Under the pieces are notes generated by a model, which was not told the DNA's origin, did no database searches, and was given only the letters and a program-made list of their open reading frames with translations. The translations under genes were made by a program, and so were the position numbers. 64,000 bases of DNA, from assembly GCA_963710375.1 (NCBI GenBank), contig CAVPZX010000006.1, forward strand, positions 94,467 to 158,466, given 5' to 3'. Each line of letters opens with the position of its first letter. Within the stretch, counting starts at the first letter, position 1. This DNA comes from Nitrospirota bacterium. Lineage in GTDB: Bacteria > Nitrospirota > Thermodesulfovibrionia > Thermodesulfovibrionales > Dissulfurispiraceae. Positions 52,476 to 56,294 of the stretch are shown one piece after another.

Positions 52476-52913
52476 ATGAGTGCTGCAACAGTAAACGTTG
52501 AGATAATAAACGTACTGGGAGTGAAAGGTAAGACATCGGTAAACTTTGACTCCATCATAAGGAAAGGGTTTTCGATAGAAGCATTAGAACGCTTCAAAAA
52601 AACATTCCAGATGGATGAAGAGACATTAGCACGCTCCATAGGAGTGAGCAGGAAGACGCTCCAGAGAAAAAGAAAAAAGAGTGCTCGCCAGAAGCTAAAC
52701 GTGGAAGAGAGCAATCGGCTGTTTAGGATGGTGAGAATCTTGACTATGGCAACGGAGACATTCGGCGGCGACAAGAAAGTTGCCACAGAGTGGATGCAGG
52801 AGCCGCAGTACGGACTTGGCGGTATGACTCCTCTAAAAATGCTTGAAACGGATGCTGGTACTGAAAAGGTCGAAAGCCTGCTCCTGCACTTGCAATATGG
52901 TGGGGTCGCATAA
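52476..52913 (+). CDS. Xre/MbcA/ParS-family antitoxin
   Basis: HTH with GVSRKTLQR, ES.RL.R, FGG...A.EW...P..LGG.TP. Confidence 0.9.
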   Translation: MSAATVNVEIINVLGVKGKTSVNFDSIIRKGFSIEALERFKKTFQMDEETLARSIGVSRKTLQRKRKKSARQKLNVEESNRLFRMVRILTMATETFGGDKKVATEWMQEPQYGLGGMTPLKMLETDAGTEKVESLLLHLQYGGVA

Positions 52914-53369
52914 ATGGTTACCGCCTATCGGATGTGCCAGAAGATGTGGGCACTTGAGGCGTTTTCAGGGGAAGGCGCGAAGAAAAGGGGCATGAGATGG
53001 AACCACAAGGATATTCCCGTTATTTATGTAGCAGAACATTTGTCGTTGTCGGCCCTGGAGATTATCGTAAATTTCCCCCGAAAGACACTCGGAGTGCCCT
53101 TTGTTTTTTTTAAGGTGGAAATACCCGAAACCGTAAAAATAGCAAACGTCGGGCATCTTCCGATGGACTGGAGGGATCTCCCGTATCAGACCTCGACTCA
53201 GGATATTGGTTCTCAGTGGGCACTAGAGCGAAAGACGGCTGTACTTGAAGTCCCTTCAGCAGTAATCCCTATTGAGAGAAACTATATCCTCAATCCACTT
53301 CACCCGGACTTCACGAAGATCCTAATAAACCCAGCGACAGATTTCCACTTCGACAACAGGTTGTTATAG
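52914..53369 (+). CDS. RES-domain toxin
   Basis: YR, FSGEGA...G.RWN, LE, VPSAV, N..LNP.HP. Confidence 0.92.
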   Translation: MVTAYRMCQKMWALEAFSGEGAKKRGMRWNHKDIPVIYVAEHLSLSALEIIVNFPRKTLGVPFVFFKVEIPETVKIANVGHLPMDWRDLPYQTSTQDIGSQWALERKTAVLEVPSAVIPIERNYILNPLHPDFTKILINPATDFHFDNRLL

Positions 53370-53506
53370 GGGTTACCTCACGCCTTGAAAAACGCCCCCT
53401 CTAACTCTTTTTTTATCGGCAACATTATATATATCTTTTTTGTAGAATAACCCGAAATCGTCCGCAGGTTCCACCTTCTACTTGGGATTTATGGTATAAA
53501 GTCTTT

Positions 53507-53665
53507 AATGGATGGGTTTTACCCATCTTTCGAGAAGGCAGGAGAACTTGGTTTTCACCTGGGTCTGAGAACCCTTCTTTCAGTGTGTTCCCTGCCTCCC
53601 AAAGCCCTGATAGGTTGGTTGGGCCGAGAGCCCTTGTCACGATGAAGGTTTGGTAGGGAGGCATT
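53507..53665 (+). ncRNA. Candidate bridge RNA of the IS110 element
   Basis: 5' hairpin (53511-27) plus two stems with large internal loops capped by near-identical GGGY..GAGARCCC hairpins (53536-97; 53599-653). Confidence 0.65.
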
Positions 53666-53703
53666 CCTGTCTTTTCATATCTGGGATTCAAGGAGGTGCT
53701 CAA

Positions 53704-54897
53704 TTGTCAGAATGTTATGTTGGCATTGATGTTTCTAAGGATGCCTCTACTGCCCAGGGCATAGACAGCGAAGGGAAGAAACTCTTCTATGTTGAATTTA
53801 CGATGAATGCCGAGGGCTTTTCAAAGCTCCTTAGCGTTCTAAGGCTGCATTGCGAAGACCTTTCCACGGTAAAAGCTGCGATGGAGTCCACGGGATGCTA
53901 TCACAGCAATCTCCTCTGCTTTCTTGTCACAGAGGGGATACAGTGTTATGTGATCAATCCTCTTATCATCGCAAATTTTGCTAAGCTTTCACTTAGGAAG
54001 ACGAAGACTGATAAAAAAGATGCCATGGTGATCGCCCAGTTTCTTCTGATGCACAAGGATGCCCTCGTCAAGGCAGCACCATCAGAGAGCCTGCAGGATC
54101 TCAAAGACCTGGCTAGGGAAAGAGAATCTCTTACGGTACTCATGTCGGGGCTGAAAAACGACATTAAGAGGATGCTGCAGATCACCTTTCCGGAGCTTGA
54201 ATCTCTCTGTAATGTTTTCTCCGAGTCGATGCGAGACATTATAAAGCAGTTTCCCTCCGCCCGGCTGATCAGGACCGCAGAATTTCTGGTAGTGAAAAAA
54301 GCTCTGACGCCTTCTGACAGAAGGAGGACTCCTCCCTTCTATCCGGCGGATTTAATAGCGGCTGCCAAAAAATCAGTTGCTACCGACAGTATCGCCAAGG
54401 AGCTTATTCTTCCTGAGAAGTACGCAACACTTGAGCACCTCATGAAGCAGAGAGAACGGATCACGGAAGCCCTTATAGAGGCATGTCAGGCTATGATGAT
54501 CGAGGACATAGAAATCATCACCTCCATTGGTGGTATCAGTGATACGACGGCATCAGCATTTCTAGCAGAGATGGGCGACTACAAGGCATTTCATTCATAT
54601 AAGCACCTGATTGCTTTCGCCGGGATTGATCCATCGATCCACCAATCTGGCAAGTTTGAAGGGATAAGCAAAATATCGAAACGGGGCAACAGGCACATGA
54701 GGCACCTTTCCTATCTTATGACCACTTGCGTTGTAAGGCTCGATAACATTTTCAGGGAATATTACCTCAGAAGAAGGGCTGAAGGCCTTCCCTATAAAAA
54801 GGCGATTCTCGCGACCGCACATAAATTGCTGCGCGTCATTTTTGCCATGCTGACAAACAGAACAACTTTCCAAGTAAAGGGGGTGATTGAAATATAG
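53704..54897 (+). CDS. IS110-family DEDD transposase/recombinase
   Basis: GIDVSK, MESTG, KTDKKDA, FAGIDP...QSG, ISKRGN; TTG start after AGGAGG. Confidence 0.95.
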   Translation: MSECYVGIDVSKDASTAQGIDSEGKKLFYVEFTMNAEGFSKLLSVLRLHCEDLSTVKAAMESTGCYHSNLLCFLVTEGIQCYVINPLIIANFAKLSLRKTKTDKKDAMVIAQFLLMHKDALVKAAPSESLQDLKDLARERESLTVLMSGLKNDIKRMLQITFPELESLCNVFSESMRDIIKQFPSARLIRTAEFLVVKKALTPSDRRRTPPFYPADLIAAAKKSVATDSIAKELILPEKYATLEHLMKQRERITEALIEACQAMMIEDIEIITSIGGISDTTASAFLAEMGDYKAFHSYKHLIAFAGIDPSIHQSGKFEGISKISKRGNRHMRHLSYLMTTCVVRLDNIFREYYLRRRAEGLPYKKAILATAHKLLRVIFAMLTNRTTFQVKGVIEI

Positions 54898-55430
54898 TTG
54901 ACTGATAACCGATAGTTTCACAATTCTGCAACTGACGAGGACTTTGTCCAGAAACATGTGTCCCGTAAGAAGAGAGAATAAAGCTTGTGATTAGCCGGCC
55001 TCGTGGCTTCGGGGATCATCGGCGGTGTGTGTTACTTTTGAAAATTAACGGAAGAAAGCTCAGCGAGGAGAAAAACCAGTTATGTCCCGTAGTACACACA
55101 ATCCCAAGATCGTTAATGAAGGAGTCTTACACTCTGGTCTTCACCGACAACTCCTCGCTACAGTCATCGCAGCAGTGGTATTGATTTCCAATAATATATA
55201 TCAGGAATGACTTGCGCTGTACGAGTTGTACTCTTCATGTCCCCGGTCAGTTAAGAGCCAATGACTTCAGCCACTACTGCGCAAAAAATAAGGCCCTAAG
55301 CTGTTATCACTTTTCTGAAGAAACAAACGCTGTCGCCATAGCTATCAGAAATTAAACATCCAATCATCGTGCATTTTTCATTACACTGTTTTTTCTGCCC
55401 CAGTTACCCTGTTTTTCAAGGGATGAAGGT

Positions 55431-55469
55431 AGAGGCGGAAGGGCAAGCTAAACCCTTCCGCCTCTTTTT
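55431..55469. terminator. Strong hairpin downstream of the Ser-rich gene
   Basis: agaggcggaaggg ... cccttccgcctct followed by tttt. Confidence 0.7.
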
Positions 55470-55484
55470 GCCATGCTTTGCTAC

Positions 55485-56294
55485 TTACGCAAAAGCGTTA
55501 ATAGCGTAACTACTCGTGCTGGCTGACTGTCCCTGCGTAAACATAGTAAGGATCTCACTCAGCTCCGTTTCCAGGGTTGTGGTCGAGCTTGTGCTCGATG
55601 AAGAAGTGCCCTGGCTGCTGCTCGTACTCGTACTCGTTGAACTCGATGCATTCTGACCCTGGCTGTTCATTGCCGAGAGATCATTTAGGACATTGGTCAC
55701 CGCTGTAGACAGGGTCGAGTCTGAAGAAGAAGTACTCGAGCTGCTACTAGCTGAAGTCAATGCACTCTGAAGAGTCTGCAGGTCACTTTGCAGTGTCTGC
55801 ATCGGGTTCGTGGTCTGACCGCTACCTGAACTGCTATTGTCCGAGCTATCTCCATCTGAACTATGATGGTGGTGATGATGGCCCTGGCTTTGCATCGAGG
55901 ATAAGTCACTCAGGACATTGTTCAAGGCCGTAGACAGGGTCGAGTTTGATGAAGAAGTACTCGAACTGCTACTTGTTGAAGAAGTACTCGAGCTGCTACT
56001 GGCTGAAGTCAATGCACTCTGAAGTGTCTGCAAATCACTCTGCAATGTCTGCATCGGGTTCTGGGTCTGACCGCTGCTGCTTGAAGACGACAGTCCTTGA
56101 GTATTACTTGGCAAGTCGCTCGTAAGCTGGGTCAATGCTGCGGACAAGGCACTTTCCGATAGCGTAACCTGATCCTGATTACCTGAACTCAAAGCAGTTT
56201 GTAGCGCATTTGCATCTGTCGTGAAAGTCTGAAAATCTGACATCACGGAGTTCTGAGTCTGGTAATAACTGTTGCTGATTGACTGTATTGTCAT
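55485..56294 (-). CDS. Ser/Thr/Gln-rich low-complexity protein with an internal duplication and His6 tract
   Basis: RBS AAGGAGG; two copies of NPMQTLQSDLQTLQSALTSASSSSS; HHHHHH between them. Confidence 0.75.
   Translation of the reverse strand: MTIQSISNSYYQTQNSVMSDFQTFTTDANALQTALSSGNQDQVTLSESALSAALTQLTSDLPSNTQGLSSSSSSGQTQNPMQTLQSDLQTLQSALTSASSSSSTSSTSSSSSTSSSNSTLSTALNNVLSDLSSMQSQGHHHHHHSSDGDSSDNSSSGSGQTTNPMQTLQSDLQTLQSALTSASSSSSTSSSDSTLSTAVTNVLNDLSAMNSQGQNASSSTSTSTSSSQGTSSSSTSSTTTLETELSEILTMFTQGQSASTSSYAINAFA

Follow-up and report, generated by a model that had tools for sequence, protein, structure and literature searches.

The systems closest to the locus described here are the RNA-guided insertion sequences (ISs) of the IS110 group, such as IS621 from Escherichia coli. 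As set out in two IS621 reports (PMC11208160; PMC11208158), the left target guide (LTG) and left donor guide (LDG) of the bridge RNA read in the sense of the top strand over the left half-site and the core, the right target guide (RTG) and right donor guide (RDG) are the complement of the core and the right half-site together, the core lies within all four pairings, and handshake bases stand just 3' of the core-pairing bases. We analyzed a window of 64,000 nt from a Nitrospirota bacterium (assembly GCA_963710375.1, contig CAVPZX010000006.1, positions 94,467 to 158,466); all coordinates below are those of the window, and all of its features lie on the forward (+) strand. We propose, with a probability of roughly 0.9, that 53477-54903 is a 1,427-bp IS110-group IS whose left end (LE) would encode a bridge-RNA-type structured RNA predicted to guide a DEDD/serine recombinase. 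An earlier reading of the letters alone (the sequence-only reading) had named an IS110-group DEDD recombinase with a bridge-RNA-type RNA upstream of it, and both proposals stood up, the first through domain matches and the second through a conserved fold and guide covariation.

The recombinase coding sequence (CDS), at 53704-54897, is an intact open reading frame (ORF) of 397 aa with a TTG start, replaced by ATG in several close copies, and a ribosome-binding site (RBS), AAGGAGGTG, at 53690-98. In Pfam its product matches DEDD_Tnp_IS110 (PF01548, E 2.8e-39) and Transposase_20 (PF02371, E 1.9e-23), and phmmer aligns both protein halves to IS621 (8wt6, E 1.1e-15) and ISCro4 (9t56, E 3.6e-15). 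These domain matches and the motif alignment give an N-terminal DEDD (RuvC-like) domain followed by a C-terminal transposase (Tnp) domain with a serine: the motifs GIDxxK, ExTG, KTDxxDA and SG are retained in the alignment to IS621, and D9, E61, D103, D106 and S315 fall within motifs aligning to IS621 chain 8wt6. We presume that these five residues have the same roles as in IS621. A protein search in which 8000 candidates were scored returned 2172 relatives at E<=1e-60; those at least 50% identical come from metagenome-assembled genomes (MAGs) labeled Nitrospirota, Thermodesulfovibrionales, Nitrospiraceae, Thermodesulfobacteriota or "delta proteobacterium".

A metagenome scan yielded 80 loci, ten of which encode proteins 74-90% identical to the recombinase (close copies). 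We mapped the ends of the element from these ten, from about 55 more distant copies, from 15 copies of the flanking repeat that have no IS, and from the loose ends of contigs. By BLASTN, homology stops on the left at 53465-77 in nine of the ten close copies, L012 being truncated by its contig start; on the right it stops at 54903-23 in close copies and at 54903-11 in most complete, more distant ones. Summed up over the copies, homology spans about 53471 (53470-77) to 54903-08, the right limit being that of most complete copies. When the ends are aligned, everything from CACCT-YCTACTT on the left through TAGTTGACT on the right is common to the copies, and the sequence outside varies from copy to copy. 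The LE begins with YCTAC immediately 3' of CT (CA in two loci) in 61/61 loci having the junction motif, and of the 66 aligned loci 54 have ATAG[T/A]TGAC[T/A] after the CDS. Loose ends of soil-sample contigs at 53472 and 54902-04 correspond to another insertion of a variant copy and to IS-free repeat copies. The dinucleotide CT stands at 53475-76 and again at 54902-03, and a single CT is present in IS-free repeat copies (CACCT followed by GATAAC); the core dinucleotide is therefore identical at both junctions and single at the empty site, and no target sequence beyond it is duplicated. Because of the homology limits, the IS-free repeat copies and the loose ends, these sequence comparisons place the element at 53477-54903 in a CAC-CT-GATA site, with the CT at 53475-76 flanking it and the CT at 54902-03 terminal. 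Its non-coding LE is long (227 nt, 53477-53703, starting TCTAC), and its right end (RE) is short, with 4 nt plus CT after the stop codon. A start of the LE at 53480 (core CT at 53478-79, 15-nt spacer) was rejected, since the covariation of LTG and RDG presented below fits only the CT at 53475-76.

These limits bear directly on the ends drawn by the sequence-only reading, which had the element run from 53490 to 54916 between TT cores at 53488-89 and 54917-18, with loop 1 of the RNA reading CTTGGGATT plus CACA and loop 2 reading CGATAGTTT plus TTTATGGTA. The strings that it matched (at 7/9, 7/9 and 6/9, and TGTG to CACA) are literally present in the sequence. However, 53477-89, including the supposed left flank CTTGGGATT (53481-89), is conserved in all close copies and hence lies inside the element, whereas 54904-23 is variable among copies and found in IS-free repeat copies, so that both CACA and CGATAGTTT (within 54910-23) are part of the target repeat. 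The copies agree in loop 2 but not in its supposed right end, and by eye the distant clades have no counterpart of these matches. Nor do the four guide-to-DNA assignments rise above chance: when the 5' side of loop 1 was shuffled, 1582/5000 shuffles gave a match of at least 7/9 at some point of the 41-nt junction region. We therefore consider that model almost certainly wrong. Its proposed check, comparison with other copies and empty sites, shifts the left end by 13 nt and the right end by 14 nt and gives a CT core, as in IS621; the claim of a new orthologue is fair, and that of a new core is not.

The window copy thus sits at GTTCCAC-CT-GATAACC, the 5' edge of a ~260-nt repeat (54904 to about 55165). 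The left target GTTCCAC plus core CT (53468-53476) lies outside the element at the first host-repeat bases, and the right target GATAACC with the remainder of the repeat (54904-55165) lies outside it on the other side. The repeat has matches in 10/10 searched genomes of the genus; one genome has ten, and that of the window has a second copy. CACCT directly precedes the first repeat base in 8/15 IS-free copies as aligned, a further 3/15 are one base off by eye (TACCT, CATCT, CACTT), and the IS-free copy L102 reads ttccacct followed by GATAACCGAG, that is, both window flanks joined via a single CT. We found no orthologous empty site at the exact window locus, where left-flank homology in relatives ends within or just after the upstream RES gene; the empty-site evidence is therefore drawn from other copies of the repeat.

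Within the LE, the DNA of 53535-53672 is 74-98% identical in 82 loci, even where the proteins are only ~50% identical. We aligned 66 non-redundant sequences from this region, excluding L087 (37 nt matched), five sequences cut by contig ends and 11 exact duplicates. The RNA folds into two arms with 25 base pairs, for which 99.3% of 1649 stem cells in the alignment are paired, as against 40-66% for slid partners; six stem pairs are altered on both sides, a number that 0/500 shuffles reach; and the RNAalifold consensus recovers both arms unaided. The LE RNA accordingly has two stem-loops, each broken by a large internal loop and each ending in a similar cap hairpin, as the sequence-only reading had seen. 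The target-binding arm (53537-53596) is formed by the stem GGCAGG-A-GAAC / GUUC-CCUGCC (53537-47 / 53587-96), with an invariant bulged A53543 and a cap hairpin at 53561-53574; its loop 1 reads UUGG plus UUUUCACCU on the 5' side and UUCUUUC-AG-UG-U on the 3' side. The donor-binding arm (53593-53663) is formed by (UGCC)UCCC / GGGA(GGCA), at (53593-)53597-600 / 53656-59(-63), then by an inner GCC/GGU, with a cap hairpin at 53621-53633; its loop 2 reads ..AUAGGUUGGUU on the 5' side and ..CGAUGAAG-GU-UU on the 3' side. Both arms are delimited by pairing in the alignment and by RNAalifold, and their look-alike cap hairpins are GGGTCTGAGAACCC and GGGCCGAGAGCCC. An AAGCC/GGUUU pairing at the base of loop 2 was rejected, as by eye G53648 varies and C53605-06 do not. 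The 5' hairpin of the sequence-only reading is also there: a stem-loop at 53510-53528 appears in the minimum-free-energy (MFE) fold and has compensatory changes, judged by eye, in close copies. The majority sister clade (L027-L063) lacks this stem-loop, and there the -10 stands only ~20 nt from the target arm.

Read by the IS621 rules, the two internal loops hold four guides. The LTG UUUUCACCU (53552-53560), which reads in the sense of the left target and core, matches GTTCCACCT at 7/9 plus one U·G wobble. The RTG (53575-53585) consists of UUCUUUC, the core-pairing AG (53582-83) and the handshake UG (53584-85); against CT+GATAACC it matches 2/2 core and 3/7 flank positions, including 3/4 of the first four flank bases. 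In loop 2, the LDG GGUUGGUU (53613-53620) forms eight pairs with AGTTGACT, three of them wobbles, within the left donor TAGTTGA (which includes the stop codon) plus core CT at 54895-54903. The RDG GAAG (53644-47; 53644-53649 with its handshake bases) pairs 4/4 with CT+TC. Handshake base U53584 faces donor A54901, and an A is found opposite in 54/54 loci; handshake GU (53648-49) faces target AC (53473-74), and pairing of the handshake base with target position 7 is possible in 53/60 loci.

These guides covary with the DNA that they would read. Six of the 66 aligned rows have no usable 9-nt left flank and 15 no 7-nt right flank; L018 and L050, in which a shared foreign sequence takes the place of the left edge, are among these rows. 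Over the seven non-core positions and 59 distinct left flanks, LTG and left target agree at 317/413 positions, compared with 227±8.5 when flanks are shuffled (maximum 260; none as high in 10000 shuffles). For 51 right flanks the RTG agrees at 229/357 positions, compared with 152±8 (maximum 184; 0/10000 as high), the matches at positions 1 to 7 numbering 51, 39, 38, 33, 32, 23 and 13 of 51, with a three-state covariation visible by eye at the first flank bases. At least five LTG classes (..CACCT, ..TTCCT, ..CTACT/A, ..CTCACT, ..GCAACT) each stand beside their own kind of flank by eye, and one MAG has nine copies with differing LTG and RTG, each following its own flanks by eye. Loop 2 behaves likewise toward the element: the T/A difference in the RE (ATAGTTGACT vs ATAGATGACT) is mirrored in the LDG in 53/54 loci, and RDG base 53645 (A/G) pairs with the first LE base (T/C) in 61/61 loci (A-T 5, G-C 56). 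As far as the sequences go, loop 1 tracks the DNA flanking each copy and pairs with the target, and loop 2 tracks the element's own ends and pairs with the donor, the RE-core-LE junction. The sequence-only reading had assigned the loops in this order, and the loop-target covariation that it asked for holds, with guides following their own flanks. Because the loci are kin, the shuffle tests treat them as more independent than they are, and firmer evidence comes from how many separate guide classes there are and from the series within one genome.

Some loci depart from the common guide pattern. In L006 and L007 the core is CA at both junctions, and the RTG and RDG have UG in place of AG, so that in nature the "invariant" core T is replaceable; in the same two loci the LTG and LDG retain CU and UU, giving a mismatch on the bottom-strand side. 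In a clade comprising L019, L021, L029, L039, L043 and L111-L118, the LTG and LDG both end in A, not U. This terminal A can pair with the U after the cap hairpin, which would lengthen the hairpin stem and shorten the guide by one base.

The conserved RNA might be nothing other than a cis-acting leader of the recombinase mRNA, acting on translation or stability, with loops that guide nothing. The RNA does contain a terminator-like hairpin (53652-71) and a long-range helix (53532-43 / 53665-76) just upstream of the RBS, and older literature cited in PMC11208160 proposed regulatory roles for IS110 ends. Covariation with DNA outside the element is unexpected of a leader, yet loop 1 tracks both flanks; loop 2 tracks the element's own termini, and the two together reproduce the IS621 pattern given in the two reports (PMC11208160; PMC11208158). 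We hold a leader-only role to be very improbable, and a regulatory role could exist alongside the guide role.

The long-range helix has features of its own. It is conserved, would enclose both arms and would compete with the target-arm stem for GGCAGG; its putative 3' strand (53665-53676) pairs with 53532-43. Beyond the invariant core its extension averages 3.08 contiguous pairs, compared with 1.97±0.17 after permutation (0/2000 as high), with an energy of -3.09 vs -2.55±0.23 kcal/mol (5/1000). Together with the RNAalifold split of the shared CCUGCCUCCC, the helix would make a three-way junction. We offer tentatively, as a possibility that we rate well below even odds, that the bridge RNA of this Nitrospirota/Thermodesulfovibrionales clade is a closed three-way junction rather than two free arms, with a built-in switch coupling guide-RNA folding to the recombinase RBS; the closing helix would then clamp the bases of the target and donor arms. 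The term "three-way" is not in the main text of PMC11208160, and no wider literature search on three-way junctions was made.

Several observations weigh against the bridge-RNA proposal, or against a functional window copy, beside the kinship among loci. The single-sequence fold of 53490-53705 is no better than shuffles (z -0.13) and is uninformative. In Rfam, searched at E up to 10 with 53300-55100 and 54890-55600, no relevant family matched the RNA or the repeat. The copy matches its own site imperfectly (left target 7/9, right target 3/7), and its LDG needs wobbles. Covariation evidence for the RDG is confined to CT+2 nt, the LE (YCTAC) and the RNA beyond being nearly invariant. Of the ATA..TAT subterminal inverted repeat, a reported trend that does not define the group, only half is found: ATA (54892-94) precedes the left donor, and TTG follows the right donor (TCTAC). 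Finally, the genome has one full copy of the element and one 96-nt LE fragment, and with a single full copy the activity of the window element is only putative.

The last point raises the question of whether the window copy is a resting or inactive relic of a bridge-type element, no longer mobile. The single full copy with its LE fragment, the 3/7 right-target match and the unoccupied state of the other repeat copy found in its own genome are all in keeping with a relic. Its ORF, on the other hand, is intact with catalytic motifs kept, as are all RNA stems; copies at 85-87% DNA identity occupy many different metagenome sites, and a variant copy was found at another site in a soil sample. We regard loss of mobility as unlikely, a judgment that touches the window copy and leaves the proposed bridge-type nature of the element as stated.

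How such an element would be expressed can be read from the join of its ends. The extended -10 (TGgTATAAA, 53492-53500) noted by the sequence-only reading is present and conserved in copies, with no -35 partner in the integrated state, and no sigma-70-like site was called upstream of the RNA in that state; we infer a transcription start near 53507. When RE and LE are joined (..ATAGTTGA-CT-TCTAC..), TTGACT (54898-54903), whose last two bases are the core, would become a -35 box separated by an 18-nt spacer (53477-94) from TATAAA preceded by TG; the earlier figure of ~20 nt changes with the corrected junction. A hand count gives a 17-nt spacer for the majority sister clade. Because the join yields a -35/-10 pair and the integrated state has no sigma-70-like site, the promoter is likely rebuilt in the excised circle, the -35 meeting the -10 only there, which is probably as the sequence-only reading had it. 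A look-up of sequencing runs for the stretch turned up no RNA run, and among the DNA contigs matching it no joints were found.

By analogy with IS621, the element would excise as a circle, and its RE-LE junction would join the -35 TTGACT to the extended -10, driving an RNA of ~170 nt. Recombinase tetramers and RNA would then synapse ..TAGTTGA-CT-TCTAC.. with a site like TTTTCAC-CT-GAAA, and strand exchange would follow CT. The preferred natural site would be the first few bases of the ~260-nt repeat. On the same analogy, expression of the RNA, binding by the recombinase and reprogrammability of the loops are predictions only.

Some copies have unusual ends. L018:94- and L050, from different subfamilies, share an identical foreign left flank (..GGACAGGTTTAATACATTATG followed by TCTAC), and another element appears to have inserted at the extreme edge of the IS110 left end in both. 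The LE fragment of the window's genome (L002; G000 C2:16494-16589, minus strand) is a solo piece, reading GCACCA, CCTACTTTGG...GGTTTCACCA, then AGTAATG; it terminates exactly at the LTG-encoding DNA, and CACCA stands at both junctions. We speculate that it arose by deletion between a pseudo-target in the LTG-coding DNA and the right junction, that is, by self-targeting.

The surroundings of the insertion are also repetitive. The host repeat (window 54904-55165; L095-L109) starts ..CACCT, then GATAACCGATAGTTTCAC, and ends ..CT(T/C)CACC, then GAC. In L098 an IS200-like Y1 transposase gene (PF01797, E 7e-18) comes immediately after the repeat's first ~140 nt, and because of this the repeat may be a non-autonomous Y1-type element, with the IS110 element homing to its left junction. 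A hammerhead-like look of CTGACGAG..CGAAAC in the repeat was without Rfam support. Just to the left of the repeat, the 64 nt at 53405-53468 have a counterpart of 89% identity in a different genome of the genus (L093), where the look-alike continues as unrelated DNA beyond 53468; the 64 nt would therefore be a further small repeat or a conserved intergenic block. Directly upstream, 52476-53369 encodes an Xre-like antitoxin (PF20432, PF09722) and a RES-domain toxin (PF08808), and the IS lies in intergenic DNA 3' of the RES gene.

Set against the described systems, the element resembles IS621, as given in its reports (PMC11208160; PMC11208158), in its DEDD RuvC-like domain and Tnp domain with a serine, in an RNA that comes from a long LE preceding the CDS, in the order 5' stem-loop, target loop, donor loop, in a CT core within all four pairings and in a 9-nt LTG in the sense of left target plus core. 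It shares as well the handshake bases 3' of the core-pairing AG, a putative -35 in the RE with a -10 in the LE, and a target in a genomic repeat. Unlike IS621, it is a distant protein match (E 1e-15) from a Nitrospirota/Thermodesulfovibrionales lineage rather than E. coli; its RE is almost nil, with stop codon, left donor, putative -35 box and core overlapping within 9 bp; its family's RTG pairs over about 5 nt or more, compared with 4 in wild-type IS621 according to the same reports; its LDG has G·T and U·G wobbles; and a closing helix may surround both arms. ISCro4 (PDB 9t56) is similar in its two-domain recombinase (E 3.6e-15), the comparison covering the protein. With the IS1111 group (IS4321/IS5075, seekRNA-type), whose members similarly enter the end of another mobile element at a fixed point, the element shares the recombinase family, but in that group the guide RNA lies in a long RE and the elements have 7-17-bp subterminal inverted repeats (PMC11208160), whereas here it is the LE that contains the RNA, and the RE has just 4 nt plus core. 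ISPpu9 and ISPpu10 of Pseudomonas putida are likewise IS110 elements that enter multi-copy intergenic repeats (REP), in a different repeat family and host, as reported (PMC12288879; 10.64898/2026.03.19.712850), and the likeness is one of description only.

At the level of sequence, every defining structural feature of IS110-group bridge systems that can be tested in silico is present at this locus. Bridge RNAs are already predicted in 85.7% of IS110-group elements, according to PMC11208160, and the window element therefore joins a well-described kind. The case is also a warning against inferring guides from one copy whose cores are assumed: the first matches obtained in this way were at chance level. 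What the locus adds is an annotated natural bridge-recombinase system, with its ends, core, four putative guides, handshake bases and natural target placed, from a phylum distant from that of the E. coli models, together with ~65 relatives whose differing guides follow their own insertion sites and would form a natural reprogramming series for testing orthologues. Biologically, it would be one more IS110 element homing to the edge of another repeat.

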